Source of the DNA: Patescibacteria group bacterium
GTDB taxonomy: Bacteria > Patescibacteriota > Patescibacteriia > UBA10025 > JAHIVO01
DNA length: 64,000 nucleotides
NCBI GenBank assembly: GCA_043808365.1
Contig: JAZDEZ010000008.1
Coordinates: forward strand, 919-64,918
Direction of reading: 5' to 3'
Under the pieces are notes generated by a model that was not told the origin of the DNA, did not search any database, and worked only from the letters and a program-made list of their open reading frames with translations. Made by a program: the position numbers and the translations under genes. Of this stretch, positions 3,245-63,465 are shown in pieces. How positions within the stretch are numbered: position 1 is the first letter of the stretch; every line of letters starts with the position of its first letter.

Positions 3245-3249
3245 AAATC

Positions 3250-3625
3250 CTTCTTTTTAGCTGCACTATCGGGGTGGGGCCCGCCTAGACTCGACGCTCG
3301 CTTCGCCTATCGAGGCGAGTCTAGTCGAGGCTGGAGAATCGTCCCGCCATGAAGGCGGGATGCCGCCCTACATTTGAAAATATAGGTAGCGGCGGCAGAC
3401 TCCCGAATTCCCCCTCCATAATGAAGTCATCGTACGGGGAAAACTCACACCCTGTATAGTCATCTCAATCGGGGATACCGGCCCCGGATCAAGTCCGGGG
3501 GAACCGGTGACCTCTTGCTCCGGGGCGTGTCGGCGGTTCCCGCATCTCCACACCCGCCTCGTCTCCTCACAACCTAAAGCAGTTCAGGTTGTTCGTAGCC
3601 TCGGCCCCCATGCATGCTGTACTAA
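3250..3625. ncRNA. GC-rich, hairpin-dense non-coding block (unclassified structured RNA or cluster of hairpin repeats)
   Basis: No credible ORF. The ends are complementary on the minus strand (GGGGGCCGAGGC ... GCCTC ... GGGCCCC). Several perfect local stems are present (CTAGACTCG/CGAGTCTAG, CCCCGGA/TCCGGGG, CAACCT/AGGTTG). It lies directly 3' of tRNA-Pro. The class could not be assigned by eye. Confidence 0.3.
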
Positions 3626-3628
3626 GAA

Positions 3629-3702
3629 TCGGGGTACTGGGACTCGAACCCAGGATCTCTGGCACCCCATGCCAGCGCGATAGCCAACTTCGCTATACCC
3701 CG
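3629..3702 (-). tRNA. tRNA-Pro (anticodon GGG)
   Basis: 74-nt cloverleaf read by hand: CGGGGTA TA GCGA-AGTTGGCTA-TCGC G CTGGC-ATGGGGT-GCCAG AGATC CTGGG-TTCGAGT-CCCAG TACCCCG A. CCA is not encoded. Confidence 0.9.
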
Positions 3703-3839
3703 TTTCTTAAAATAGCATGCGCGCCTGCCCCGCAATGAACGAAGTGAGTTATGCGGGGCTAGCCTCAGCCAGAGGCTGATCCGCCTCCGGTGGAAACTGC
3801 TTGCCCCGTCGAATGACGGGGCGTTATACCCCGTTTCTT
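3694..3839. repeat. About 116-nt hairpin-module insert flanked by a 15-nt direct repeat that includes the tRNA-Pro 5' end
   Basis: TATACCCCGTTTCTT occurs at 3694-3708 and 3825-3839. The interior holds the hairpins CCCCGCA..TGCGGGG, CAGCC-AGA-GGCTG, TCCGCC..GGTGGA and GCCCCGTC..GACGGGGC. Confidence 0.6.
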
Positions 3840-5707: not shown

Positions 5708-7162
5708 TCAACCTAATTTCGGCTGACGCGTGTGCCATTCTGTCGACTGTTCATAGGCGTACGCTGTTCGTAAGACTGTCGCTTCGTCAAATGACTTGCC
5801 CATGATCTGCAGGCCGATCGGCAATCCTTTGGTAAAACCGCACGGGATCGATATGCCGCACAGCCCGCCGATATTGGCCTGGACATTATAGATATCCGAC
5901 AGGTACATCAGCAATGGGTCGGCGAATTTCTCGCCGAGCTTGAAAGCCACGGACGGCGTGGTCGGCGTGATCAGGCAGTCGACTTTCTTGAACGCGTCAG
6001 CCAGTTCGCGCTTGATGACAGACCGAACCTTCTGGGCTTTAACATAATATTGGTCATAATAACCGGCAGACAAAGCGAACGTACCCAGGATAATCCGGCG
6101 CTTGGCCTCATCGCCAAACCCCTTTTCCTTCGAGAGGGAATATACTTCAAAAAGGTTTTTTGCCGCATCATCGGCTGACAGCCCGTACCGGATCCCGTCA
6201 AACCGCGCCAGGTTTGATGATACTTCTGACATGACCGTGATCAAATAAACCGACAAGGCGTATTTCGTATGCGGTAAACGTAATTTTACGGCTTTCGCGC
6301 CCAGGCTCTCCAGTTGTTTAATCGCATCCTTGACGGCCGTCCGGATATCCTGGTCCATTCCGTCTACAAAATATTCCTCCGCCACGCCGATTTTCAGCCC
6401 CTTTACGCCACTTTTGAGCGACGAAAAGTCTAACGGTTTTTTTACAGCAGTCGCATCCCGGCCGTCTGGTCCGGCGATTGAACTGAAAAGCGCGGCGCAA
6501 TCTTTGACGGTTTTGGTCAGCGGCCCGATCTGGTCCAGTGACGACCCCATGGCTGACAAGCCGAACCGCGATACCCGGCCATAGGTCGGCTTCAGGCCGA
6601 CCACCCCGCAGAAAGCGGCCGGTTGGCGGATAGAGCTGCCCGTGTCCGAGCCAAGCGCCGCGAGGCACATATCGGCCGAGACAGCGGCCGCGGAACCGCC
6701 GGATGAACCGCCGGGTACCCGGTCAATGTCCCACGGGTTATGCGTGTTGAAATACGCGGAATTTTCCGTTGAAGAGCCCATGGCAAACTCATCCATATTC
6801 GTCTTGCCCAAGAAAACGGCGCCGGCGGATTTGAGCTTGGCAATCACGGTCGCGTCGTATGCCGCGATATATTTTTCAAGGATCCTTGACCCGCTTGTGC
6901 ATGCCGCCCCGCTGACCAGGATATTGTCCTTGATCGCCAAGGGGATGCCAGTCAATGCCGTCATCTTTCCACTGCTTATTTTCTTATCCGCTTCATTAGC
7001 TTGCCGTAAAGCGGACTCCTTAGTCATGGCGATGAAAGCTTGGATTTTTCCGTCAGTTTTTTTTATCAATGCCAAACACGCCTCCGTAAGTTCACGGGAG
7101 CTGAATTCCTTTTTGGTCAGGCCAAGATGCGCCTGGTCAATTGTCAGTTTGTGCAGTTCCAT
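5708..7162 (-). CDS. gatA: Glutamyl-tRNA(Gln) amidotransferase subunit A
   Basis: 484 aa. Amidase signature GGSSGGSAAAV and typical GatA N- and C-termini. Confidence 0.95.
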   Translation of the reverse strand: MELHKLTIDQAHLGLTKKEFSSRELTEACLALIKKTDGKIQAFIAMTKESALRQANEADKKISSGKMTALTGIPLAIKDNILVSGAACTSGSRILEKYIAAYDATVIAKLKSAGAVFLGKTNMDEFAMGSSTENSAYFNTHNPWDIDRVPGGSSGGSAAAVSADMCLAALGSDTGSSIRQPAAFCGVVGLKPTYGRVSRFGLSAMGSSLDQIGPLTKTVKDCAALFSSIAGPDGRDATAVKKPLDFSSLKSGVKGLKIGVAEEYFVDGMDQDIRTAVKDAIKQLESLGAKAVKLRLPHTKYALSVYLITVMSEVSSNLARFDGIRYGLSADDAAKNLFEVYSLSKEKGFGDEAKRRIILGTFALSAGYYDQYYVKAQKVRSVIKRELADAFKKVDCLITPTTPSVAFKLGEKFADPLLMYLSDIYNVQANIGGLCGISIPCGFTKGLPIGLQIMGKSFDEATVLRTAYAYEQSTEWHTRQPKLG

Positions 7163-7493: not shown

Positions 7494-7539
7494 ATATAAC
7501 AGTATATCATCAGTTTTATAAAATAAAAAGCCGAAGGCT

Positions 7540-8972
7540 GTCCCACGGAAGTGATAATGTCCTACTTGAGGGAAGTTAAAATGTCCTACCTCAAGGTAGA
7601 ATGAAATGGTTATTCACTAACCGTTTCACCTATGACATTACTCACTATGTCGACCAAAGAATTGGATAGGTTTCAAATCATCAAGCAGCTAATTGGCAAA
7701 CGCGTTAACGGCACAGAGGCGGCGAGGTTGCTTCAGGTAACCGCTCGCCATGTCAGACGCTTGAAATCCAAGGTACGGCGGTTCGGTCCTCAAGGCCTCA
7801 TTCACGGTAACCGCGGTAAAGTGAGCCATAACCGCCTGCCAGAGGAAGAACTGAAAGCCATCAGCGCCTTGCTTTTCAGGCGCTACCCTGGCTTTGGACC
7901 GACCTTTGCCGGTGAAAAGTTGTCTGAACATCACGGTATCGCGCGTGATCCCAAAACCATCCGCCAGATCATGATTGAGGCGGGATTGTGGAAACCGCGA
8001 TTAACAAAGAAAGCGTCTGTCCACCGGCAGTGGCGAGAAAGAAAGGCCTGTTATGGAGAAATGATCCAATTCGACGGCTCTTATGAGCACTGGTTTGAGG
8101 ACCGGGAAGGAAGCGGGAAAGTCTGCCTGCTAGCCGCCGTTGACGATGCTACTGGTACGGTGGCCAAAGCCGCGTTTGACGTCCACGAGGGGGTGTTTCC
8201 CGTATTCGCCTTTTGGAAAGCATACTTGGCCGCAAACGGCTGCCCCCGGTCGATTTACCTGGACAAATTCAGCACCTACAACATGAATCACCCCATAGCC
8301 AAGGAGAATCCGGACACCCTCACCCAGTTTGAGAGAGCGGCCCGGGAACTCGGGATCGAGCTCATCAAGGCCAACAGCCCCCAGGCTAAAGGCAGGGTGG
8401 AGCGGTTGTTTGCCACACTCCAGGACCGGCTGACGAAAGAGCTCCGGCTCGCCGGTATCTCGACCATTCCGGAAGCTAACGCTTTCTTGGAATCCTACCT
8501 GCCGAAATTCAATGCCCGATTCTCCGTACTACCGCGTTCTACGGCAAACCTGCACCGTCGGTTGACGGTGACCGAGGCTGGTAACCTGAGCAGTGTTTTC
8601 TCTAAACAGGCTGAGCGAACTATCCAAAATGATTTTACCTTCTCCTTTCACGGCCAATGGCGCCAGCTCACCCCGGAGCAGCCGGTGACGGTCTGCAAAA
8701 AGGACACCGTGATGGTCGAAGAGCGCCTGGACAACACAATCCAGGTCAGACTAAGGGGTAAATATCTCAATTACCGGCTATTGCCCACCCGGCCAGCCAG
8801 GCATACCGTGCCCATTAAAATGCCCTGGGTCTTACCGGCCTCAAAGGCCCACGTCCCGCCCCCCAATCATCCCTGGAGGCTGTCATTTAACGCCAGCATA
8901 AAAGCTAAACAAAACGCCCAGGTAGGACATTTCTATTTCCCTGGAAGTAGGACATTTTAACTTCCCGTTGAC
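7540..8972 (+). mobile_element. Insertion sequence (ISNCY-like, single DDE transposase gene)
   Basis: About 55-bp imperfect terminal inverted repeats, each carrying two AATGTCCTAC boxes (left end GTCCCACGGAAGTGATAATGTCCTAC..., right end reverse complement GTCAACGGGAAGTTAAAATGTCCTAC...). A perfect 20-bp core GGGAAGTTAAAATGTCCTAC occurs at 7570-7589 and 8948-8967. The element is flanked by the 17-nt direct repeat ATAAAAAGCCGAAGGCT (7523-7539 and 8973-8989). Confidence 0.85.
7632..8960 (+). CDS. Transposase (N-terminal HTH plus rve/DDE integrase core)
   Basis: 442 aa. The N-terminus KELDRFQIIKQLIGKRVNGTEAARLLQVTARHVRRLKSKVRRFGPQGLIHGNRG is typical of proteins annotated as ISNCY family. The central part is DDE-type. 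Confidence 0.85.
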   Translation: MTLLTMSTKELDRFQIIKQLIGKRVNGTEAARLLQVTARHVRRLKSKVRRFGPQGLIHGNRGKVSHNRLPEEELKAISALLFRRYPGFGPTFAGEKLSEHHGIARDPKTIRQIMIEAGLWKPRLTKKASVHRQWRERKACYGEMIQFDGSYEHWFEDREGSGKVCLLAAVDDATGTVAKAAFDVHEGVFPVFAFWKAYLAANGCPRSIYLDKFSTYNMNHPIAKENPDTLTQFERAARELGIELIKANSPQAKGRVERLFATLQDRLTKELRLAGISTIPEANAFLESYLPKFNARFSVLPRSTANLHRRLTVTEAGNLSSVFSKQAERTIQNDFTFSFHGQWRQLTPEQPVTVCKKDTVMVEERLDNTIQVRLRGKYLNYRLLPTRPARHTVPIKMPWVLPASKAHVPPPNHPWRLSFNASIKAKQNAQVGHFYFPGSRTF

Positions 8973-8988
8973 ATAAAAAGCCGAAGGC

Positions 8989-9017
8989 TTGACAAAATAC
9001 ATTTTTTCTACTAGTAT
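8989..9017 (+). promoter_or_regulatory. Sigma70-like promoter candidate for the 608-aa gene
   Basis: TTGACA (8989-8994), 17-nt spacer, TAGTAT (9012-9017). The -35 box abuts the right copy of the IS-flanking repeat. Confidence 0.4.
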
Positions 9018-11898: not shown

Positions 11899-13935
<2,037 letters not shown>

Positions 13936-14004
13936 TCAAAACGAAAAAAAATTTTGGAATGTATTTTATATATTTTATCTTTGATTTTTTATATCTAAAC
14001 TTAA

Positions 14005-15327
14005 CTATGTCGGGCAATCAGGAAAAATCTTATAACTACTGATCTGGTACCAGTCGACCTGCAACTGCTGCCCGGTTGTTGTTAAATTCTTGAATATGAC
14101 GCTGCGGCCGACAGTCCCGCTGCCGAGAGAGAACGGCTCTGGAATCGTGCATGTTTTCCATGTACCGGAGCTTGACGGGTTGAACGTAAACCCGACTTCC
14201 CCCTCTGCCGGATCAGAAATAGTCACCTCAGCGCTGGTGCTGGCGCTGTTGACGCGAACACTGATATACAATTCCTGTGCCGCGGTAACGCTTGAGGGAA
14301 TTGGCAGCGTAAAATAATTATTGGCCGCGGCCGCGGCACAATAAAATGGCGATCCCGACGTGCAACTCGTACCGGCCGTGCACGCACTGGCCGACCATCC
14401 GACTGCCTGACAGGTAGCACAATCCGCGCAATCCGCGCTGGCATTCGCTTCCACCTGAATCACGCCGGATGAATATATAGCCCTGCTAAGGATAATATCT
14501 TTCGACAATTCCCCTTCGCTGAACAGCACGTAGTCATACAGGCCGGATAACGGCAATCGCCAAGGGACAGTGGCGGTGAGCGCCTGTTTGAATGTATTGC
14601 GCTTGCCGACTGATTTGATAATAACCTGGGATGGTAAAACAGTAACCTCTGTCCCGCTATTAGAGGGGAAAACCGATAAGCCTGTTATCGGCCCAAATAA
14701 TGCCCGCACCCGCAACCGGTACCCGACCGGTGTTATTCCGGCGGTATAGACATTAGCCAAATTAATCGTCCAGCCGTTGGACAAATCCGTGGGACCAATA
14801 ATTTTCTTCGCATCGACTGAAGTAGCCAATAGCCCCGTAGCATCCCACCCGATCCAGGATACCTCGGCCCAGGAATCCGGGTTATTGCCGCTGTTTGAAA
14901 CAAGGACCTGATTAACAATTCGGTCGTCGTCCGGATCTAAGGGATTGTCCACGTCATAATAATCAGCCTGGACCATTTCATTTTCAGTTAAGGCTCTATT
15001 GATAATTAATGAGGTTCCAGAAACAGTCTGGTCATTGGCATATGACGCATTATTGGACGTAAAGTTGGCCGCATACGCAGCCACCAGGGACACGGTATTC
15101 GTGAGTGACATGACGCCCTCATCTCTTTTTACCTTCACGCCATACAGCCCTTTTTCTATGCCCGATTCCGCCGCGTAATACGCCAGCGTCCCGTCAGTGG
15201 ACGAACTGGTCAGCTTGAGCTCATTGATAATTACCAAAGATACAGTCAAGGCGATGGCCGTTAAAAGTCCGATGACCAAGAGGGCATAGATCAGGACCAC
15301 GCCTTGGTTGTGGCGTCGGTTAATCAT
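14005..15327 (-). CDS. PilX-like pilus-associated protein with a Cys-rich C-terminal domain
   Basis: N-terminus MINRRHNQGVVLIYALLVIGLLTAIAL resembles the PilX_N hydrophobic segment. The track start is 15351; ATG 15327 overlaps the upstream stop by 8 nt. The C-terminal part carries CADCATC..C..C..C. Confidence 0.65.
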   Translation of the reverse strand: MINRRHNQGVVLIYALLVIGLLTAIALTVSLVIINELKLTSSSTDGTLAYYAAESGIEKGLYGVKVKRDEGVMSLTNTVSLVAAYAANFTSNNASYANDQTVSGTSLIINRALTENEMVQADYYDVDNPLDPDDDRIVNQVLVSNSGNNPDSWAEVSWIGWDATGLLATSVDAKKIIGPTDLSNGWTINLANVYTAGITPVGYRLRVRALFGPITGLSVFPSNSGTEVTVLPSQVIIKSVGKRNTFKQALTATVPWRLPLSGLYDYVLFSEGELSKDIILSRAIYSSGVIQVEANASADCADCATCQAVGWSASACTAGTSCTSGSPFYCAAAAANNYFTLPIPSSVTAAQELYISVRVNSASTSAEVTISDPAEGEVGFTFNPSSSGTWKTCTIPEPFSLGSGTVGRSVIFKNLTTTGQQLQVDWYQISSYKIFPDCPT

Positions 15328-16060
15328 GGTAAGTATTTTTAACCTGGCCAAGGATCAGGCGGCTCGAGACAATGCTCTGGAGATTCAGGGTTCGGGACAC
15401 AACCGGTAAGCTTGGGTCATCCGCGACCGACTGGATGATTATACGAACCTTAGGCTGGAAATGCTGGCCGTCTGTAAAGTAAACACAATTTGAACCGGGG
15501 CTTGGACATGAATAGCCATAAACATTCTGGCATCCCAACTTTCCCGCAGTCGCACAAAGAGTCGGCGTAATACCTGTAAACGGGTCAGCTGTCGGAGTAA
15601 TGACAAATCGCAGATCCTCAATAGATACGCCGTTTGGCGTTAAATCATTCCACCCACCACCAGTATCTAGGTCACATTCATTCAGAGTAACCTCTTTACA
15701 GTACTGCATCCTCTGATTGGCTGAGTCCCAACGATAAAAAATATCCTGGTTTGCTTGGTTGATCAGGGCTAGAATCCTCACGGGTTGGGTATCAGCGCTC
15801 GGATGTAAATCAACGCCATTTGAAATGTCGGAATAAAAATCATAATTGATCCGCCCGAGCCTAATGTCCTGGGCCATGACTTCCATCATATAACGCACGT
15901 CATCCTGGATCTTTTGCGCGGCGGCGACTTTCCTCTGAGACCGGTTGATGATGACGAAAACGTTGGTGGCAATCAACAAAATCAAGACAAAAATCGAGAG
16001 CGCGATAATCATCTCGATTAGCGTGAAGCCTTTTTTGTTATTTATGGATTGGCGGCGCAT
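15320..16060 (-). CDS. Type IV minor pilin (PilW-like), prepilin-type N-terminal methylation domain
   Basis: MRRQSINNKKGFTLIEMIIALSIFVLILLIA, the canonical G/FTLIE prepilin motif. Confidence 0.85.
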   Translation of the reverse strand: MRRQSINNKKGFTLIEMIIALSIFVLILLIATNVFVIINRSQRKVAAAQKIQDDVRYMMEVMAQDIRLGRINYDFYSDISNGVDLHPSADTQPVRILALINQANQDIFYRWDSANQRMQYCKEVTLNECDLDTGGGWNDLTPNGVSIEDLRFVITPTADPFTGITPTLCATAGKLGCQNVYGYSCPSPGSNCVYFTDGQHFQPKVRIIIQSVADDPSLPVVSRTLNLQSIVSSRLILGQVKNTYHD

Positions 16061-16204
16061 GTTACAAAATCAAAGTTTAAATATCAAAAATTAAATATTT
16101 AGCTTAATAATTATTCCGAATATTTTTAATTTTTTCATTTTGATATTTTATTTATCATCGCTTGCTTTATGCTATTTGATATTTGAAATTTTCAATTTGA
16201 TTTG
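16061..16204. repeat. AT-rich inverted heptamer arrays (TCAA units, then TTGA units)
   Basis: Left part: AAAATCA AAGTTTA AATATCA AAAATTA. Right part: TTTGATA TTTGAAA TTTTCAA TTTGATT, with TTGA ends at 16179, 16186 and 16200 (7-nt register). Located in the intercistronic spacer of the pilin operon. Confidence 0.55.
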
Positions 16205-16810
16205 TCATAACACCTGCCAGTTATACAAACGGTCCTCGATCGTGACGTGCTTGGTAGAGCTTGATGATGGCCAGCGGACTTCAGCCACGACGCGAATGCC
16301 TACTTTGGCATAATCGGTCCCTGTGCCAAAAGACGCGCAATCCTCATCTACCCCGACAGCTACAATTTGTTCATCCCCATCAGAATCTTTTCGACAGATT
16401 GGATTTAAATACACTAACCGATAAAACTGCGTATCATTACCGCTGGCACTGGCTCCTTGCAGATATTCTGCGCCTGACTGCTTTATCACCGTAAAGCCAT
16501 TATCACTGAAATTGAGGGATAACGGATTCGTCCCGTCTACCACGAGCGTGGCCGTATTATCGGTTCCGCTGGTCAGCCCGCTGTCCCAATCCAAAGTCGC
16601 CGTCGCCGCCCAATTGCTGTCGCGGATGTTGCGCGCCAATTCAACCGCTTCACGGGCCAGGCTGGTGCCGATCAGCTTGTTGGTGCTCTCGCGGCCGGCT
16701 TTGATGCTGGCCACGATCAAGGCGATAGTCGTAACCAAAGCCACCACCAGTATGCTGATGGCGATCAGCACTTCGAGCAATGTTTGTCCTTTGGTAGTTA
16801 TTTTTTTCAT
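16205..16810 (-). CDS. Type IV minor pilin (PilV-like)
   Basis: Real start ATG 16810 gives MKKITTKGQTLLEVLIAISILVVALV (prepilin motif G/QTLLE). The 27 upstream codons of the track ORF overlap the preceding gene. Confidence 0.8.
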   Translation of the reverse strand: MKKITTKGQTLLEVLIAISILVVALVTTIALIVASIKAGRESTNKLIGTSLAREAVELARNIRDSNWAATATLDWDSGLTSGTDNTATLVVDGTNPLSLNFSDNGFTVIKQSGAEYLQGASASGNDTQFYRLVYLNPICRKDSDGDEQIVAVGVDEDCASFGTGTDYAKVGIRVVAEVRWPSSSSTKHVTIEDRLYNWQVL

Positions 16811-16811
16811 A

Positions 16812-17495
16812 TTATGGCGTACAGCTCCCCTGGCTCTCGCTGACCTGTCCTGATAGCAAATTAACAGACACCCGGCGGCAAAAGTCAGCAATATGCGTGC
16901 TCTTCACGACGATATCAAGATTTGTATAGTCGGTATTGAGTGAATTATTAATATACAATTTCGCCGTACCTTCCGGCGGACTGAATAATACTGACACAGG
17001 AACAGTGGCAGGATCATATGTCGTTTCCGAAGAAGGGGAATAGACTTTGTACCCGGTAATGTAAATATTATCAGATGTATTGTCCTGGTGAATCACCTGA
17101 TAATCAACTGACGTGTTCAATATGCCATCCGGTTCCGTATCGCCGAAAATCTGATAATTGTCCTGGCTCCCGATATAAATCCCGTATCCATTTGTCGGAG
17201 TGGTATTTTTACATTCTCCCGGCGTCCCGCAATTTGGCGTTGCCACCAAACATGACCCATACTCATTGGCAGTTGAACCGCCCTGGCAATAACTGATGCT
17301 GTTACCGGCGATCGTGTAACTTTGCGCCAGACGGATATCCTGCAACAGCTTCGTGGCCGCGCTCCTCAGTTCCGTCGACCGGCGGCCAGCCTGGAAATTC
17401 ACTAAAACCAGCGTGGTCATTAACCCGATAATCGCCATGACTACGAGCAATTCCGCGATGGTAAAGCCTTTTTGATGACGTAAAAATCCAATCAT
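16812..17495 (-). CDS. Type IV pilin-like protein (FimT/GspH-like)
   Basis: Real start ATG 17495 gives MIGFLRHQKGFTIAELLVVMAIIGLM. It forms an ATGA overlap with the pilD stop. The track ORF (to 17741) is an N-terminal over-extension inside pilD. Confidence 0.8.
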   Translation of the reverse strand: MIGFLRHQKGFTIAELLVVMAIIGLMTTLVLVNFQAGRRSTELRSAATKLLQDIRLAQSYTIAGNSISYCQGGSTANEYGSCLVATPNCGTPGECKNTTPTNGYGIYIGSQDNYQIFGDTEPDGILNTSVDYQVIHQDNTSDNIYITGYKVYSPSSETTYDPATVPVSVLFSPPEGTAKLYINNSLNTDYTNLDIVVKSTHIADFCRRVSVNLLSGQVSESQGSCTP

Positions 17496-18274
17496 AAGGT
17501 CAGGATGCTTTGGTAATAGCTGACGACCGCCGTCCCGATGAAAAACGCCGCAAACGTAGCCACCGCCAAAAAAGTGCCGAAGGGCACCTGGCTCTGCCAT
17601 TTTTTTCGGCGGGACAGCACCAAGAATATGCCGACGACTGATCCGATAAAATAAGCGGCTACCAGGGCGACCAGGACATGCGGCCACCCGAGCATCATGC
17701 CCATCAGGACGCCGAGCCGGATGTCGCCGCCGCCAATCCATTTCCCTCGGGAAACCAGGAATTGCAAGAGGAAAAATCCTCCGCCCGCCACCGCCCCGAC
17801 CAATAGGCTGGCCACGCTGATTTTCAGGACAACCGTGGACAAGATTATGGCTAAAACAATGGCCGGGACGCTCACCTTGTCCAATATCAAGTAATATTTC
17901 AGGTCAAAAACAAAAATGAGCATCAAGATGCCCGCGTATGCCAGGTAAACAAAAAAAGCCGGCGCCAAACCGAACTGCCAGTACAATAATGTAAAGGCGA
18001 TGGACATCGCTGCCTCTACCAACGGATACTGCCATGAAATAGGCTTTTGGCAGTACCGGCAGCGTCCTTTGAGTAATAAGAAACTTATTAACGGCAGTAA
18101 ATCTTTGGCCGCCAAATTATGCTTGCAATGAGGGCAGTATGAGCGCCCCCGCGTGAATGACACGCCGACGTGGAGACGGTAAATGACGGCGTTCAAAAAA
18201 CTGCCGACTACCAAGCCCAAAATTGCCACGAGAAAAGTTATCATAACGGCGTTAATTATACCAAAAAATGGCAA
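17492..18274 (-). CDS. pilD: Prepilin peptidase / N-methyltransferase (A24 family)
   Basis: 260 aa. Zn-binding CPHC...CRYC N-terminal region, polytopic, GGGDIRLG aspartyl-protease motif. Confidence 0.9.
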   Translation of the reverse strand: MPFFGIINAVMITFLVAILGLVVGSFLNAVIYRLHVGVSFTRGRSYCPHCKHNLAAKDLLPLISFLLLKGRCRYCQKPISWQYPLVEAAMSIAFTLLYWQFGLAPAFFVYLAYAGILMLIFVFDLKYYLILDKVSVPAIVLAIILSTVVLKISVASLLVGAVAGGGFFLLQFLVSRGKWIGGGDIRLGVLMGMMLGWPHVLVALVAAYFIGSVVGIFLVLSRRKKWQSQVPFGTFLAVATFAAFFIGTAVVSYYQSILTL

Positions 18275-18321
18275 TTTATCAAAATGACCACATACCGTTA
18301 TGATAAGCTATTTTGGCCAAT

Positions 18322-18744
18322 TTATTTGATGCCATCCTGCGTCAGCAGGTGCCGGCCGGCCGGAAAATTTTCGTATGACTTTTCCAGGGTGAATGAAATC
18401 CCATAACCGTCATTCGTGGGCACGCTCACGACCTGATACTGGTATTCGCCGGGGTCTTTCATTTGGCCGATAGTCGGTATGTATGCCTGCAGGCTGCACT
18501 GGCTGACGAGCATCCCCGCCTTATCGCACCCTATCTGCGCGGCTGCCGCGTAGCTGGACGTATCGGCAAAGTTCAGCTCAAACGCCGCCTGGATCCGCGC
18601 CATATCCGACATGCGTTTGGCATCGCGGGACTTGGCCTTTTCCTCATTGAGCAATAAAAACGCCCCGCCGATGACCGCGCAAAAAATAATCACGACGATT
18701 ATTATTAATAATGCGGACAAGCCTTTTTGGTTATCGTGTGTCAT
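18322..18744 (-). CDS. Pilin-like protein with a non-canonical N-terminus
   Basis: 140 aa. QKG/LSALLIIIVV with no Phe+1 and no Glu+5, followed by the pilin-type helix KSRDAKRMSDMARIQAAFEL shared with the other pilins here. Confidence 0.6.
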   Translation of the reverse strand: MTHDNQKGLSALLIIIVVIIFCAVIGGAFLLLNEEKAKSRDAKRMSDMARIQAAFELNFADTSSYAAAAQIGCDKAGMLVSQCSLQAYIPTIGQMKDPGEYQYQVVSVPTNDGYGISFTLEKSYENFPAGRHLLTQDGIK

Positions 18745-18761
18745 ATATATAGTATTTTAAA

Positions 18762-19256
18762 TTACGGCATGGTCGGGCAATGGCCGCCTTCGCCATACAC
18801 GCCGGTTGAATAAAAATAAAACCACGGGCTGGATTGCTTCTCTTTGTGGAAACAGATCACATAGGCTCGATGGTTGACCTGTTCGCTTTGGTTGGTGTCG
18901 TAAAAATAATAAAAAGCCTGGGCCGCAGAATTAACCGGATCGACTAATAGCCGGCTGATGTACCCGGGATAGAGAGGGTTGCCTAAGGTGGAAAAAATCG
19001 TATTGGGCCCCGTGTCCGTACTCAAATCAGATCCCGCGCCTCCACCGGCCACTGGGATCGGATAGTGGTCATTGTCATCGAAATATAATGCCAGGGCTAA
19101 ACGCAATTGCGAAAGGTCGGAAATTCTCGTCGCGTCACGCGCCGCCTCTTTGGCGCCCCGAAGTTCTGATAAGCCCATCGTTACCAAAATGCCGATAATG
19201 GCCACAACCACCATTAATTCAATCAACGTATAACCGCGCACGCTATTCTTCCTCAT
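18762..19256 (-). CDS. Type IV pilin
   Basis: MRKNSVRGYTLIELMVVVAIIGILVTMG ... AKEAARDATRISDLSQLRLALALY. Confidence 0.85.
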   Translation of the reverse strand: MRKNSVRGYTLIELMVVVAIIGILVTMGLSELRGAKEAARDATRISDLSQLRLALALYFDDNDHYPIPVAGGGAGSDLSTDTGPNTIFSTLGNPLYPGYISRLLVDPVNSAAQAFYYFYDTNQSEQVNHRAYVICFHKEKQSSPWFYFYSTGVYGEGGHCPTMP

Positions 19257-19295
19257 ATGCCAACCAATTAATGACTTCCATTGTATTATACAATC

Positions 19296-21305
19296 CTACG
19301 GCAATTCCTTCAATTTCTGCTCAGCCAGGGAAAAATTCGATTTGAGCCGTAAGGCGTGCTGGTACTCGGCTCGCGCCTTTTCAATAATGCCGGTAACCTG
19401 GTAATTTTGCCCTAAAAGCAAATGTAAAAATGCCAGCTGGGTGGACAAATTCGGGTTACTGGACGACTCAATTTTCCCATAAGTATGTAATATATTCAAA
19501 ATAGTCTCTTTTGACTTTTCGTAATTTTTTGTTCCAAAATATACCAGCGCCGCGGAATAATAGTAGTCCGGACGGAATGTCGGGTTATATAAAATCGCTT
19601 TTTCATATTCCTGAAGCGCAGCCGGCTCGTTCTTGTCCGCATAATACATCTGTCCCAGATAAAAATATCCCGTATAATACGCTGGATTCTGCCATAACGT
19701 GACCTGGAGTTTTTGTTTCAATTCTTGCTGCTGGTCCGCTGACAACACGCGGTACCCGACGCCTAAAGCACTGACTTCATTGACCAAACTGGCCGGGTCA
19801 GGATCAAACCTCCAGCCCTGCATGTAATAGCGGTGGGACGCCTCGAATTCCCCATCCACTGCCGCTCGCTCTCCATTTTGAAAATTATTCACCCCGAGAA
19901 ATAACGTCACGCCCCTGAGCAACAGGACGGCTGCCAGCAGGGACAAAAAGATTTTTATCCCCGGCATAAACAGCGCTGTACGAGTAGATGGGACAGGCTG
20001 GGATGGATCCCCTGGATTTGATGACGGCTTCACGGCCAACAAGATGCCACCGCTCATCCAGAAAAGAATGAACACGGCGGGAAACTGCCAGCCAAAATCA
20101 AACACGGCATGCACCGCTGAACCGCAGATACCGAGCCATAACCCAAAATAAATATATTTTCTCCCCCGATCTGCCTCGGAGGAAATCTTCTTATAGGTCT
20201 TCAATATCAACAAAATTACAAATGCTAAAAACGCAATGCCGCCAATCACACCGGTTTCAGCGGCAGTCTGGAGGTAATAATTATGCGCATACCGAGGCTG
20301 TTCCAGTACGCTTAGGGCGTATCGTGCGTACACTCCCTGGAATGAATTGTACCCAAAGCCAACTAGCGGTTTGTCCAGGAACATTCTGATCGCCGAATAA
20401 TTAAAATTGAGCCGCTGGTTAAAACTGGATGCTAAATGCTGTTCTGAGATGGTGCTGTAAATCTTCACTGCGTCTGACCAGTTATGGCTCTGGCTGTAAC
20501 GGAAAAGTGTCGCACTGCCGGCTAAAACCAAAACCAACGCCGCCCCTACTAAAACCACTCTTTTGGTAAAAAGCGACTTCCAGAAAAAAAACAGCATTAT
20601 GATGGCCGGCAGGATAAAACTTGCCCAACTGGTATATGAATATGTCAAAATATACGCCGCAATAATAATCAATGTGCAGATATAATAAAGGCACCGTATT
20701 TTCTGCTGGGAATACCGGATTGAAATCATGACGCCCAGTGGCAATGAAAATAACAAATAACTACCCAGGGCATTGGCATTGAACAAGAACCCGGATCCGC
20801 GATTATCCGACTGAATGGCGAACATCATCAGGGATATCAGGGCGGCAATGGCTCCCACGAAAAAAATTATATGGCTGATGGCATTGATCCATCTCCATTC
20901 CCGAAAGAAAAACATCGCTCCGAAAAAAACTACTACATAGCAAGCCAAGAGGAAAATCAGGCTGGCGCTGTCATAGTGGTTTACTGAAAAAAATACCGAA
21001 ACAGCCACCGCGAGTAAAAAAATCACCAGATACAATACAGGCGATTTGAATATCTCCGACCTTGACCCGGCAGATTGCGAAGTCTGCTGGCCGATCAAAA
21101 CAATCAAATAAAATGCTACGAGGGATGTGGAAACTAAAATTGCGGCTTGCAGCCATTTGCTCCATTCCCCGCCAAAAAACGACGGAATTACAATCAAAAA
21201 AATAAACAGGCCTAAAATTACTTTTTGCCTGAACCCAGCCATGTCTTGGGAAATGCGGTCAAGAATCATGGAATAAGTATACCAAAAAAGATAGCAGTCC
21301 ATCAA
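19296..21305 (-). CDS. O-antigen-ligase (Wzy_C)-like polytopic membrane protein with C-terminal TPR repeats
   Basis: 669 aa. At least 10 predicted TM helices with a large loop, then TPR-like YYxGxxYY / A..YEKAI repeats. The exact start is uncertain. Confidence 0.7.
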   Translation of the reverse strand: MMDCYLFWYTYSMILDRISQDMAGFRQKVILGLFIFLIVIPSFFGGEWSKWLQAAILVSTSLVAFYLIVLIGQQTSQSAGSRSEIFKSPVLYLVIFLLAVAVSVFFSVNHYDSASLIFLLACYVVVFFGAMFFFREWRWINAISHIIFFVGAIAALISLMMFAIQSDNRGSGFLFNANALGSYLLFSLPLGVMISIRYSQQKIRCLYYICTLIIIAAYILTYSYTSWASFILPAIIMLFFFWKSLFTKRVVLVGAALVLVLAGSATLFRYSQSHNWSDAVKIYSTISEQHLASSFNQRLNFNYSAIRMFLDKPLVGFGYNSFQGVYARYALSVLEQPRYAHNYYLQTAAETGVIGGIAFLAFVILLILKTYKKISSEADRGRKYIYFGLWLGICGSAVHAVFDFGWQFPAVFILFWMSGGILLAVKPSSNPGDPSQPVPSTRTALFMPGIKIFLSLLAAVLLLRGVTLFLGVNNFQNGERAAVDGEFEASHRYYMQGWRFDPDPASLVNEVSALGVGYRVLSADQQQELKQKLQVTLWQNPAYYTGYFYLGQMYYADKNEPAALQEYEKAILYNPTFRPDYYYSAALVYFGTKNYEKSKETILNILHTYGKIESSSNPNLSTQLAFLHLLLGQNYQVTGIIEKARAEYQHALRLKSNFSLAEQKLKELP

Positions 21306-23079: not shown

Positions 23080-23173
23080 GTAATTAGTAATCTGTAACTT
23101 GTAATAATTGTTACTGATTACAGGTTACCTGCTTAAATCACTAATTACTATTTACGAATTACTAATTACTTAC
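23080..23173. repeat. Heptamer array: 4 GTAANNN units followed by inverted TTAC units (hairpin-forming)
   Basis: GTAA starts at 23080, 23087, 23094 and 23101. TTAC ends at 23114, 23121 and 23128, then at 23148, 23155, 23162 and 23169. Confidence 0.75.
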
Positions 23174-32698: not shown

Positions 32699-32785
32699 CC
32701 TTGTTCAATGTATAATTGATAATTTCTAATGCATAATTTGTTACTTTGATTATACATTTTGCCTTATAAATTCCCTCCTAATATC

Positions 32786-32835
32786 TAACAACTAATTACT
32801 AATTACCAACTACTAATTACTGATTACTAACTTAC
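32786..32835. repeat. Heptamer array (NNNTTAC), spacer between the giant gene and pilM
   Basis: TAATTAC TAATTAC CAACTAC TAATTAC TGATTAC, with (T/C)TAC ends at 32799, 32806, 32813, 32820 and 32827. It overlaps the stop codon of the giant gene. Confidence 0.7.
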
Positions 32836-47162: not shown

Positions 47163-47173
47163 TTACTTTCCGC

Positions 47174-47271
47174 GGATTACTTGTTACCCGTTACTAATTA
47201 CGAATTACTATTTACTAATTACTTATTACCTTTTATCTATTATTTATTATCTATTACTTATTACCTTCTAC
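47174..47271. repeat. Heptamer array, 14 NNNTTAC units in unbroken register
   Basis: TTAC/TTAT/CTAC ends at 47180, 47187 ... 47271 (every 7 nt). It fills the spacer between the stop of the 1677-aa gene and the start of the 743-aa gene. Confidence 0.85.
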
Positions 47272-52320: not shown

Positions 52321-52453
52321 GGATTACTTATTACCCGTTACTGATTACTAATTACGAATTACTTATTATTTATTATTTATTACTTATTACCTATTATTTA
52401 TTACTTATTACATTGTTCATGGTTCTAAGTTCAAAGTTCATGGTTCATAGTTC
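52321..52453. repeat. Heptamer array, 19 units: 13 NNNTTA(C/T) then 6 NNNGTTC in the same register
   Basis: Units end at 52327, 52334 ... 52411 (TTAC/TTAT) and at 52418, 52425 ... 52453 (GTTC) with no phase break. Confidence 0.85.
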
Positions 52454-56663: not shown

Positions 56664-56753
56664 TAGGTTCCAAGTTCCTAGACAAAGTTGATTGTTCAAG
56701 GTTCTAAGTTCCTAGTCCCAAGTTCATTGTTCCCAGTTCATAGTCCTGAGTTC
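56664..56753. repeat. 13 NNNGTTC heptamers (right arm of cassette 2, inverted relative to the left arm)
   Basis: TAGGTTC CAAGTTC CTAGAC AAAGTTG ATTGTTC AAGGTTC TAAGTTC CTAGTCC CAAGTTC ATTGTTC CCAGTTC ATAGTCC TGAGTTC. The track ORF 56688-57668 wrongly translates this array as an HtpX N-terminal extension. Confidence 0.8.
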
Positions 56754-56765
56754 AACGTAAATCCC

Positions 56766-57672: not shown

Positions 57673-57810
57673 ATGGATAATAAAAAAGACATCATTACCG
57701 AGGTACAGACTGGCACCGCCACTTCGACAAAAATTACTCTCGGGATTTCTATTGCCGCGGGAATTATTACCGCCGCCGCCATCATCTTGGCGCTGACGAA
57801 CATCAAATGA
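57673..57810 (+). CDS. Possible 45-aa tail-anchored membrane peptide (below the track cutoff)
   Basis: MDNKKDIITEVQTGTATSTKITLGISIAAGIITAAAIILALTNIK. It starts 5 nt after the htpX stop. No clear SD. Confidence 0.3.
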   Translation: MDNKKDIITEVQTGTATSTKITLGISIAAGIITAAAIILALTNIK

Positions 57811-57997
57811 ACTACCTCGCAGCAAGCTGACGAGGTATCGTCAGCCAAGAGATATGTTCATTCTCCGTAGCTAGCTATCCTCCTTCGCTTGCGCTTCGGA
57901 GGATTCTCCTCATTTGTTTCCCCGCAGTCCAGCCTTCGTAGCCGAAGCTACTTCGGCGGAGCAGGCCAAGCTGCGGAGTATTAATGCGGAGGAGAAT
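57807..57997 (+). repeat. Dispersed GC-rich hairpin repeat, long copy
   Basis: ATGAACTACCTCGCAGCAAGCTGACGAGGTATCGTCAGC...GTTCATTCTCCGTAGCT ... CAGTCCAGCCTTCGTAGC ... GCGGAGGAGAAT. It matches 62132-62245 but carries two extra internal hairpins. Confidence 0.75.
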
Positions 57998-62119: not shown

Positions 62120-62131
62120 CAAACTGCTACA

Positions 62132-62245
62132 ATGAACTACCTCGCAGTAAGCTGACGAGGTATCGTCAGCAAAGAAATGCGTTCATTCTCCGTAGCTTCT
62201 CTTTAATTCATTTCTCTCAGTCCAGACTTCGTAGCGGAGGAGAAT
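62132..62245 (+). repeat. Dispersed GC-rich hairpin repeat, short copy
   Basis: ATGAACTACCTCGCAGTAAGCTGACGAGGTATCGTCAGCAAAGAAATGCGTTCATTCTCCGTAGCT...CAGTCCAGACTTCGTAGCGGAGGAGAAT, starting 13 nt after the clpC stop. Confidence 0.75.
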
Positions 62246-63018: not shown

Positions 63019-63041
63019 TGGAGAGGTGGCCGAGTTGGCTG
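63019..63041 (+). pseudogene. Orphan 5' fragment of tRNA-Ser(GCU) (first 22 nt plus 1 leader nt)
   Basis: TGGAGAGGTGGCCGAGTTGGCTG is identical to 63114-63136. It is followed by the twin hairpins CCCGCC-AGA-GGCGGG and TCCGCC-TTT-GGCGGA instead of the rest of the tRNA. Confidence 0.7.
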
Positions 63042-63114
63042 CCCGCCAGAGGCGGGTCCGCCTTTGGCGGAAAGGCTACTTAAAAAGAATAAATTAATTT
63101 GTAAAAATAATTTT

Positions 63115-63206
63115 GGAGAGGTGGCCGAGTTGGCTGAAGGCGGCAGGTTGCTAACCTGTTATACGGGTTTAAATCCGTATCGCGAGTTCGAATCTCGCCC
63201 TCTCCG
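63115..63206 (+). tRNA. tRNA-Ser (anticodon GCU)
   Basis: GGAGAGG TG GCC-GAGTTGGCTGAA-GGC G GCAGG-TTGCTAA-CCTGT, long variable arm, GCGAG-TTCGAAT-CTCGC CCTCTCC G. CCA is not encoded. Confidence 0.9.
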
Positions 63207-63227: not shown

Positions 63228-63465
63228 GGAGAGATGCCGGAGTGGTCGATCGGGGCGGTCTTGTCCCGCGAATAGCGGTGGGATGTCGGAGTGGTTTAAC
63301 GAGCTGGTCTTGAAAACCAGAGTCCCTGTAAGGGGACCGCAGGTTCGAATCCTGCTCCCACCGCCATTCGCGCGATCCCGCCTACATTTTATAAAATAAA
63401 GGGGGCAGGAAAAACCGGTAAGGGTGATAAGCCCTTCGGGGGTTCGAATCCCTCTCTCTCCGCCA
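63228..63465 (+). tRNA. Class II tRNA (Ser-like) split in the anticodon loop by a 147-nt insert (intron-containing gene or disrupted pseudogene)
   Basis: 5' half 63228-63263: GGAGAGA TG CCG-GAGTGGTCGAT-CGG G GCGGT CTTG. 3' half 63411-63465: AAA ACCGG T-AAGGGTGATAAGCCCTT-C GGGGG-TTCGAAT-CCCTC TCTCTCC G CCA. Acceptor, anticodon-stem and T-arm pairings all close across the insert. Confidence 0.6.
63277..63366 (+). tRNA. tRNA-Ser (anticodon UGA), nested inside the split tRNA
   Basis: GGTGGGA TG TCG-GAGTGGTTTAA-CGA G CTGGT-CTTGAAA-ACCAG, variable arm AGTCCCTGTAAGGGGACC, GCAGG-TTCGAAT-CCTGC TCCCACC G CCA. Every stem is Watson-Crick. Confidence 0.9.

Follow-up and report, generated by a model that had tools for sequence, protein, structure and literature searches.

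The window analysed here, a stretch of 64,000 nucleotides (nt) from contig JAZDEZ010000008.1 of a Patescibacteria group bacterium (assembly GCA_043808365.1), carries an intact tRNA-Ser(GCU) gene and an intact tRNA-Pro(GGG) gene, upstream of each of which lie a copy of the tRNA 5' end and a pair of short GC-rich hairpins. The original prediction, made from the letters of the window, had listed a 23-nt exact repeat of the 5' end of tRNA-Ser(GCU) (63019-63041), a 15-nt repeat at tRNA-Pro comprising 6 nt of leader and 9 nt of tRNA (3694-3708 and 3825-3839) and a twin-hairpin module of about 31 nt shared by both sites (63043-63073 and 3766-3796). The coordinates hold, and so does the likeness of the modules: 25 of 31 bases are equal and one stem position has changed from C-G to A-T. 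From this it had been suggested that a small non-autonomous element, or the remnant of a recombination site, may insert into tRNA genes near their 5' end, with a duplication of 15-23 nt. The small element stood: the hairpin pairs are two copies of a 30-nt double-hairpin element that belongs to a large family of insertion elements, dispersed over unrelated sites in many bacterial phyla. The duplication did not stand.

When the 30 nt at 63042-63071 were cut out, the contiguous D-loop sequence of tRNA-Ser(GCU), GAGTTGGCTG^AAGGC, was regained (^ marks the junction); the order at the site is GGAGAGGTGGCCGAGTTGGCTG, then CCCGCCAGAGGCGGGTCCGCCTTTGGCGGA, then AAGGCtaC.... The identity with tRNA-Ser(GCU) 3' of the element amounts to just 5 nt, which is weak taken alone. 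At tRNA-Pro, removal of the element regained AGTT^GGCTA. Here the dead tRNA copy contains three inserts, the element, a 20-nt hairpin (both in Table 1) and a 31-nt hairpin (3728-3758); read from 3839 to 3709 without them, it aligned to leader plus tRNA-Pro with a score of 54, the maximum for shuffled sequences being 31. In L005, a relative of the window, a copy of the 20-nt hairpin with a compensatory change lies in the remnant of a tRNA T-loop. The direct repeats at the two tRNA genes are therefore the 5' parts of dead and live tandem tRNA copies rather than target-site duplications. Both elements entered the D-loops of spare tandem copies (Ser-GCU and Pro-GGG), and the dead copies gained other hairpin inserts later, their decay being under way. 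Local tandem duplication was the very finding that had been named beforehand as speaking against a duplication made by the element.

Within the window the module occurs just twice when up to 7 mismatches are allowed, and the BLAST E value of about 0.3 is not significant. That the module is real therefore follows from matches outside the window and not from the similarity of the two copies within it. Species-representative genomes were scanned with the pattern GCCAGAGGCNGNTCCGCCTNNGGNGG, which has 21 fixed bases and for which about 0.3 chance matches were estimated in 596 Gb on both strands; JGI metagenomes were scanned independently with TCCGCCNNNGGCGGATCCGCCNNNGGCGGA, which has 24 fixed bases and leaves the loops free. 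Each of the two scans yielded at least 120 loci. All family counts, logos, codon-phase and tRNA figures given in the following are among the matches listed, about 248-250 sampled copies. The flanks were unrelated in 120 of 122 loci, with 2 related pairs among the 122 flank sets.

The element consists of two abutting 15-nt hairpins, YCNGCC-NNA-GGCN'GR followed by YCNGCC-TNN-GGCN'GR, with stems of 6 bp and loops of 3 nt. In the logo of 127 copies conservation is at background beyond about 36 nt, whereas the 14 bp in the middle (AGGCGGA^TCCGCCT) hardly vary, the centre often being a GGATCC site. Further out the stems vary: the pair (-1,9) is CG in 82, AT in 34, TA in 6 and GC in 1 of the copies, and the outermost pair (-3,11) is TA in 92 and CG in 27. 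With the loops left free, 112 of 123 copies had NNA as the first loop, and TNN was the usual second loop; a purine-rich loop was followed by a pyrimidine-rich one in 113 of 123 copies, the reverse order being found in 2. The element is therefore built of a unit and its near reverse complement, joined head-to-head, which gives the same reading on both strands.

For the twin hairpin the covariation score (alignment A1) was 0.159 as compared to 0.086 for shuffled alignments, none of 500 shuffles scoring as high, and double changes were found in 88 cells where 41 were expected. When the same columns were paired as a single long hairpin, covariation was zero. The compensatory changes thus indicate two local hairpins rather than one long hairpin, and two hairpins are also the best fold of the Pro copy (-8.0 kcal/mol). 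The single long hairpin, or cruciform, is energetically best for canonical copies, yet was rejected for its lack of covariation. An outer three-way stem formed by the T and A flanks was rejected too: 53% of the cells were paired, and perfect complementarity of the flanks was not above the control. Lone 15-nt hairpins were considered as the true unit and discarded; the 29 isolated examples are without the flank motif and often tip larger local hairpins, so that they may be unrelated GC stem-loops. Longer, protein-coding relatives, for which the original prediction had advised to look, were not seen among about 250 loci, and the solo hairpins do not bracket genes.

The boundaries of the insert could be deduced from 14 interrupted tRNAs that adjoin an intact paralogue at a distance of 20-260 nt. 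In all of them the insert is exactly 30 nt long and the target duplication is zero (junctions in Table 1). At a further locus, L046, ARAGORN called a tRNA-Val across the junction only after the element had been removed in silico, a removal tried with ends shifted by 0-9 nt in either flank. A direct-repeat test on the flanks of the family gave a weak excess, which was traced to surrounding 7-mer tandem arrays, and target-site duplication was dropped as an explanation. The comparison once drawn with an insertion sequence (IS) lying between 17-nt repeats in the window likewise found no support. Arrays of 7-mers (AGACTTT, GGATTTN, GATTTTT and others) enclose many intergenic copies of the element in other phyla.

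The flank logo has T at -2 in 85% and A at +2 in 84% of the copies, with the consensus T-T-Y^R-A-A, the left and right biases being statistically independent. The universal sequence of the T-loop, GTTC^RAAT, matches TTY^RAA, and the D-loop sequence AGTT^GG matches its left half. At least 18 of about 248 copies (about 7%) interrupt a tRNA-derived sequence, most often in the D-loop and otherwise in the anticodon loop or the T-loop. A called tRNA was found within 300 nt of the element in 19 of about 125 copies of the first sample (Ser 7, Pro 7) and in 4 of 123 copies of the second. Of 41 copies of the variants TCAGCC..GGCTGA and CCCGCC..GGCGGG, to which both window copies belong, 16 had a tRNA nearby, as compared to 4 of 58 copies of the canonical TCCGCC..GGCGGA (Fisher p = 2e-4). 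The predicted targeting of tRNAs has therefore survived in part: the link is recurrent and real, yet partial, with over 90% of the copies away from tRNAs and about half of all copies in frame in genes.

In 17 of 18 cases the interrupted tRNA is decayed or truncated and has an intact paralogue nearby, the exception being the otherwise intact tRNA-Val of L046. Since the interrupted copies decay next to an intact paralogue, the element is not spliced out but inactivates the tRNA genes that it enters.

Table 1. Features of the window and junctions of resolved insertions into tRNA-derived sequences (30 denotes the element)
Feature	Positions in the window	Strand	Sequence or remark
Intact tRNA-Ser(GCU)	63115..63206 (called ends 63114/5-63206/7)	+	tRNA calls
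Dead upstream tandem tRNA-Ser(GCU) copy, positions 1-22	63020..63041	+	leader beside comF retained
Double-hairpin element, Ser copy, 30 nt	63042..63071		CCCGCC-AGA-GGCGGG then TCCGCC-TTT-GGCGGA; first hairpin is the CCC..GGG variant
Rest of dead tRNA-Ser(GCU) copy and leader of live gene	63072..63113	+	AAGGC, then AT-rich decay
Intact tRNA-Pro(GGG)	3629..3702	-	tRNA calls
Decayed tandem tRNA-Pro copy, leader and positions 1 to about 35	3709..3839	-	three hairpin inserts
Double-hairpin element, Pro copy, 30 nt	3765..3794		TCAGCC-AGA-GGCTGA then TCCGCC-TCC-GGTGGA; TCA..TGA variant; one G.T pair
Second hairpin family	3803..3822		GCCCCGTC-GAAT-GACGGGGC; confined to window lineage
Hairpin, then module 2 hairpin with AT-rich loop (3363-3387)	3341..3400	+	first hairpin TCCCGCC-ATGAA-GGCGGGA
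Older tRNA-Ser(UGA), 5' half	63228..63263	+	broken in anticodon loop
147-nt anticodon-loop insert	63264..63410	+	intact tRNA-Ser(UGA) 63277-63366 and module 2 63379-63403
Split tRNA-Ser(UGA), 3' half	63411..63465	+	T-arm-like matches; ARAGORN
T-loop insertions, L068 (Ser), L086 (Pro), L154 (Ser)			GGTTC^30^AAATCC
T-loop insertion, L048 (Ile)			GAGATT^30^CGAGT
D-loop insertions, L100 (Asp), L114 (Pro), L118 (Pro-like), L186			CAGTT^30^GG
D-loop insertions, L056 (Arg), L249 (Arg)			GTAGTT^30^CAA
Anticodon-loop insertion, L145 (Tyr)			CTGT^30^AAATC
Anticodon-loop insertion, L023 (Ser)			GGTCTC^30^GAAAACC; boundary ambiguity about 1 nt

The element has the length of 10 codons and is free of stops in all six frames. 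It lies in an open frame of at least 600 nt in 63 of 128 copies of the first sample and in 65 of 123 copies of the second, where the frame extends openly for 60 nt or more to either side of the element. The host genes encode RpoC, RpoB, LeuRS, AspRS, TopA, GyrA, PheT, TsaD, RecJ, MurF and an Mfd-like helicase (two copies). In protein genes the element survives mainly at codon phase 0, to which 59 of 65 copies conform, the translation being a Gly/Ser-rich decapeptide, SAxGGSAxGG. The target may contribute to this bias, since TT^RA at phase 1 would need a TAA or TGA codon; phase 2 is permitted by the target, yet just 5 of 65 copies have it. Hydrophobic or aromatic amino acids make up 31% of the second variable residues in coding copies versus 56% in non-coding copies (p = 0.003), with a bias to Ser in the former. 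The rarity of phase 2 together with the residue bias points to translation of the coding copies and to selection on the peptide.

TsaD with the element differs from E. coli TsaD (4ydu_A) by an insertion of exactly 10 residues. Among 120 orthologues of AspRS (67-100% identity) the insert is present in 5, in four of them at one site and in one at another, where the DNA reads CTT TTG ^ TCC GCC GGA GGC GGA TCC GCT TCA GGC GGA ^ AAA GAG. The AspRS insert is inherited within a clade of about 80% identity. The nearest orthologue free of the insert is about 83% identical, and the boundaries in this empty-site comparison are blurred at the DNA level. In three AspRS sequences (P0122, P0124 and P0170) the loop that bears the element in four orthologues (after ...DFPFFEK) holds other, lineage-specific inserts of 10-25 residues rich in G/P/A/S, e.g. 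EGPASRKASQATSSPALRSSEGAKK; these could be decayed or frame-shifted older copies of the element. On one Patescibacteria contig (L126) a free-standing gene for a LAGLIDADG_3 endonuclease (6191-7021) lies 3 kb upstream of the aspS gene with the element.

Some genes and short contigs harbor 2-4 copies, some of them degenerate: L031 (Mfd-like), L051 (S41 peptidase), L076, L184, L192 and L200. In L076, which encodes a giant protein of at least 1679 amino acids, degenerate copies are for example FSAVSGSASGGD and FSAVGGSASGGE. The multi-copy genes suggest repeated insertion into tolerant proteins or local spread.

The GC content of the host loci is 31-70% among the genomes and 28-72% among the metagenomes. 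The titles of the records name many classes of Patescibacteria, Omnitrophota, Planctomycetota, Verrucomicrobiota/Kiritimatiellia, Chloroflexota, Ignavibacteriales (on a 1.65-Mb contig), Desulfotomaculaceae (123 kb), Zixibacteria, a KSB1 single-cell genome, Elusimicrobia, Margulisbacteria and others. The near-identity of the copies across phyla would be explained, we infer, by horizontal transfer. A phage or plasmid origin was rejected after BLAST searches without a match in 50,697 GenBank phage and 72,556 PLSDB plasmid records and by scans of the 2.9 million viral contigs of IMG/VR, in which the two patterns gave 0 and 2 matches.

Our preferred explanation, which we consider somewhat more probable than all others taken together, is that of a dispersed 30-nt insertion element that leaves no duplication. 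As to how it moves, we tentatively propose, by analogy and with distinctly less confidence, that the element is non-autonomous and would be mobilized in trans as folded single-stranded DNA by a hairpin-recognizing enzyme of the HUH/Y1 type. Such an enzyme would work in the peel-and-paste manner of IS200/IS605 and REP-RAYT, in which no duplication is left and insertion is 3' of a short motif; DNA that is single-stranded, structured and heavily transcribed, as in tRNA genes, would be a favoured target.

Several observations do not sit easily with this explanation. A mobilizing enzyme was not found, although no search was aimed at one and the sequence covered was 8-20 kb per genome, and the only transposase-like open reading frame (ORF) of the window (7632-8960) gave helix-turn-helix (HTH) matches only. 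The left and the right flank are biased to a like degree (about 84%) and independently of one another, which a one-sided target rule of the IS200/IS605 type does not obviously predict; a palindromic double-strand target is possible, as is insertion into either strand on an AT-rich background. The two halves of the element are equivalent, unlike the ends of IS200/IS605. For canonical copies the thermodynamic optimum, at -13.9 kcal/mol, is the one long hairpin. Dead tRNA copies beside live ones (about 7% of the copies of the element) are commoner than neutral insertions into rare tandem duplicates predict, and insertion may be coupled to tRNA duplication. Both scans are lower bounds and give no totals per genome. 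Finally, some organism labels are unreliable: the AspRS of L037, a 'MAG TPA_asm' record labelled Candidatus Saccharibacteria, is nearest to Yanofskybacteria proteins (75-81% identity), and the taxon names of such third-party assemblies should not be trusted at face value. The breadth in phyla therefore rests on long contigs such as that of the Ignavibacteriales and on the range in GC content, from which the spread is wide despite the doubtful labels.

Among the other explanations, template switching during replication or repair fares best, though we regard it as unlikely. A stalled or broken 3' end in a structured or T-rich/A-rich region would for a short stretch copy a hairpin pair that already exists, or a hairpin would copy itself by folding back, before synthesis resumes; a dedicated transposase would not be required. 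This would account for the absence of a target duplication, for a unit joined to its reverse complement (the product of fold-back synthesis) and for the covariation within hairpins, which is automatic if one arm templates the other. tRNA genes are strong sites of conflict between replication and transcription, and the duplicates that adjoin the interrupted tRNAs could be created in the same event. The boundaries, however, are exact to the base in the resolved cases and the length is a constant 30 nt; the loops of the two hairpins are mutually complementary in just 15 of 123 copies; 3' of the element the tRNA sequence goes on from where it was broken instead of beginning anew at an upstream point; and the occurrence of the same sequence at 28-72% GC across phyla requires a template that can be transferred.

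An element or recombination-site remnant specific to the 5' parts of tRNAs that duplicates 15-23 nt of its target, as originally predicted, has become improbable. Both window copies do follow tRNA 5' fragments, the tRNA-derived share of about 7% is mostly in D-loops, and the variant subfamilies are linked to tRNAs. But the 14 exact inserts refute the duplication, the tRNA continues 3' of the element at tRNA-Pro and alike in L100 and L145, insertions into T- and anticodon-loops occur too, and more than nine tenths of the copies are away from tRNAs, half of all being in ORFs.

Spread via RNA, to which we give the same low standing, was proposed for the double-hairpin elements of Allomyces mitochondria since flanking duplications are lacking there (PMC2800124). 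A twin-hairpin RNA would enter exposed loops of another RNA, followed by reverse transcription and recombination with the genome. The three sites entered in tRNAs (D, anticodon and T) are all single-stranded loops of the folded molecule, duplications are absent and G.T pairs occur in the stems. On the other hand, the element is strand-symmetric and is found equally in intergenic repeats that do not look transcribed, and at one pair A.C mismatches (5 CA) are about as frequent as G.T (2 TG), so that neither RNA strand is favoured. A reverse transcriptase was not seen near the copies, for which no systematic search was made. The dead tRNA copies retain their 5' leaders, which fits DNA duplication equally.

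A conserved functional motif, be it a structured RNA, a protein-binding palindrome or a terminator, kept by selection at each site without any insertion, is very improbable. It would be in line with the compensatory changes and with a central palindrome that is nearly invariant across phyla. Against it, the element is in frame in unrelated essential proteins, at places where such residues are absent from orthologues and solved structures, the flanks are unrelated, Rfam has no match, and the run of T precedes and the run of A follows the hairpins, which is the opposite of an intrinsic terminator. For the window, a search of Rfam 15 at the gathering threshold and at E <= 10 returned three tRNAs and noise and left the modules unmatched. 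An artefact of assembly, library preparation or a synthetic linker, as nearly all matches being in metagenome-assembled genomes (MAGs) and the frequent GGATCC centre might suggest, is scarcely credible in view of the varied assembly tools and technologies and the single-cell genome that carry the element, its natural variation with compensatory changes, the frame and residue biases, the inheritance in the AspRS clade and the decay of the flanking pseudo-tRNAs.

Three known kinds of sequence were also compared and set aside. A classical miniature inverted-repeat transposable element would have a fixed-length target-site duplication, which is absent in the 14 cases resolved by tRNAs. An integrase att-site remnant does not fit, since the repeats are 5' parts of tRNAs with their leaders and not 3' parts bounding an integrase island, since 72-116 nt of hairpins lie between the repeats and since the same 30-mer is present at hundreds of non-tRNA sites. 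A tRNA intron (group I or bulge-helix-bulge) is contradicted by the interrupted copies being dead, with an intact paralogue in 17 of 18, and by the absence of a match to an Rfam intron.

A description of the element in bacteria was not found by full-text search with the exact sequence, the peptide and keywords; the coverage of such a search is incomplete and an earlier description is possible. By analogy it may be placed as a new, cross-phylum 30-nt double-hairpin element within the known kind of palindromic selfish DNA, the nearest analogues being the Rickettsia palindromic elements (RPEs) and the mitochondrial double-hairpin elements (DHEs). RPEs are in-frame palindromes in genes, reportedly described by Ogata et al. 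in 2000. They share with our element the in-frame insertion, the open reading through the repeat and a product apparently translated and tolerated in surface regions. They differ in being 100-150 nt long, restricted to Rickettsia and of several unrelated families, whereas the element is 30 nt long and represents one family across phyla. A mention of RPEs is made in PMC1779305.

DHEs are known from chytrid fungi and Schizosaccharomyces (Paquin & Lang; PMC10085805), and their mobility is discussed in PMC2800124. Rich in GC and with a length of a few tens of bases, they occur in intergenic regions and rRNA genes, and are identical across Schizosaccharomyces species (PMC10085805). The likeness is one of architecture and behaviour: two adjacent GC-rich hairpins per short unit, no flanking duplication, no protein, dispersal in intergenic regions and structural RNA genes and copies (near-)identical across species, which for DHEs is read as purifying selection or horizontal transfer. 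DHEs, however, are found in a few mitochondrial genomes in a handful to dozens of copies, whereas the element resides in bacterial chromosomes of many phyla, is about half in frame in protein genes, has a TTY^RAA-like target and inserts into tRNA loops. The GC clusters of yeast mitochondria and the hairpin elements of sponges and placozoans are likewise GC-rich mobile repeats of AT-rich genomes, sometimes in coding or rRNA genes (PMC2800124, PMC4478555), but are organellar and lineage-specific, some families having target duplications.

With REP/BIME-RAYT and IS200/IS605 the element has in common short GC-rich hairpins, there recognized as single strands, and the pairing of inverted units (as in REPIN-like doublets); with IS200/IS605 also the lack of a target-site duplication. 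IS200/IS605 insert 3' of a specific motif of 4-5 nt; in the element TTY on the left may be such a motif, RAA on the right being equally and independently biased. REPs differ in being extragenic and species-specific with a 5' GTAG, whereas the element is intragenic in about half of both samples and GTAG is absent from the 127-copy logo. IS200/IS605 have asymmetric ends with guide sequences flanking tnpA, whereas the element is two-fold symmetric and has no identified associated gene.

A bolder proposal, which we put forward as a doubtful one, is that the element is the smallest self-contained mobile DNA seen so far: a 30-nt 'dumbbell' that would have crossed more than 10 phyla horizontally, moved by a widely conserved and possibly housekeeping enzyme acting on single-stranded DNA, writing a Gly/Ser decapeptide into essential proteins, repeatedly killing tRNA copies at their loops, with a turnover of tRNA genes as the result, and being the bacterial counterpart or even the ancestor of DHEs. 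If the reading as a dispersed insertion element is right, palindromic selfish DNA inside genes, so far known from Rickettsia and a few mitochondria, would be general in uncultivated bacteria, and one sequence of 30 bases would cross phylum boundaries. RpoB, RpoC, aminoacyl-tRNA synthetases and other markers used for phylogeny and structure prediction would carry 10 extra residues, tRNA gene calls would be broken, and pseudo-tRNA debris could be mistaken for integration scars. The presence or absence of the element would be usable as a marker in strain tracking. Being non-coding, free of duplications, fixed in order and exactly 30 nt long, it would be a clean substrate for finding the moving enzyme and a clean system for asking why the loops of tRNA genes are hot spots, and the movement of the mitochondrial DHEs would become testable in bacteria.

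Relatives of the window (L001, L002 and L005) were located via the synteny of comF. In L001, with 65% ComF identity, the order is comF, tRNA-Ser(GCU), tRNA-Ser(UGA) with a single, uninterrupted tRNA-Ser(GCU); the hairpins and the extra copy are absent. L002 has a tRNA 5' fragment followed by hairpins different from those of the window, and in L005 three 3' fragments of tRNA-Ser(GCU) are accompanied by hairpins of yet another kind. The lineage of the window gathers tRNA debris that is full of small hairpins. Orthology of the dead tRNA-Ser copies of the window and of L002 was considered and given up, the local alignment not being significant (p about 0.09) and the MAFFT alignment being uninformative.

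The original prediction had also noted a second module shared by the two regions of the window, which was recovered with 75.6% identity over 41 nt (3344-3384 versus 63361-63398). This module 2 is local, being found in the window and at the orthologous site of L005. Scans for a wider spread of module 2 and of the other two hairpin families of the lineage gave matches solely in the window and its close relatives. One copy lies in a tRNA within a tRNA (63228-63465): after deletion of 63264-63410, ARAGORN called a tRNA-Ser(tga) with the acceptor stem GGAGAGA/TCTCTCC, and the inner, intact tRNA-Ser(UGA), which is bounded by the complementary flanks TCCCGCGAA...TTCGCGCGA, differs from the split outer one. 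At this site L005 has the right junction, a degenerate 3' half and a further hairpin pair in the T-loop. In L002 the region 3' of tRNA-Ser(UGA) (12685-20573) encodes a large serine recombinase, an HTH protein, an SNF2/PLD helicase and a type IIG/MmeI-like methylase-nuclease, and looks like an island integrated at the tRNA that is split in the window.

At 7524-8989 the window contains an IS-like element with 39-nt imperfect inverted repeats (7570-7608 and 8928-8966), an extra partial left end (7547-7567) and an ORF of 442 amino acids with matches to HTH Pfam families only. It is flanked by the 17-nt direct repeat ATAAAAAGCCGAAGGCT (7524-7540 and 8973-8989), which contains an AGCC-GAA-GGCT mini-hairpin; 17 nt is unusually long for a duplication. 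A 67-nt intergenic repeat, 93% identical and ending AATGAAC...GTTCATT, is present at 57806-57872, reaching on to about 58025, and at 62131-62197, reaching on to about 62255. Behind the first copy lie additional GC hairpins (e.g. CCTCCTTCGCTTGCGCTTCGGAGG and GCCGAAGCTACTTCGGC) that are absent at the second and look like nested hairpin insertions.

Tandem arrays of 7 nt precede large genes of the window, TAATTAC-like ones at 23136-23169, 32773-32834, 47168-47250 and 52322-52404 and GTTCANN-like ones at 52391-52453 and 56691-56760. Downstream of tRNA-Pro about 380 nt (3245-3628) are non-coding, GC-rich, dense in hairpins and without a match in Rfam; they include a T-arm-like sequence, CCCCGGATCAAGTCCGGGG, and the long inverted repeats CTAGACTCGAC...GTCTAGTCGAG, and could represent either more debris of tRNAs or an RNA not described so far.

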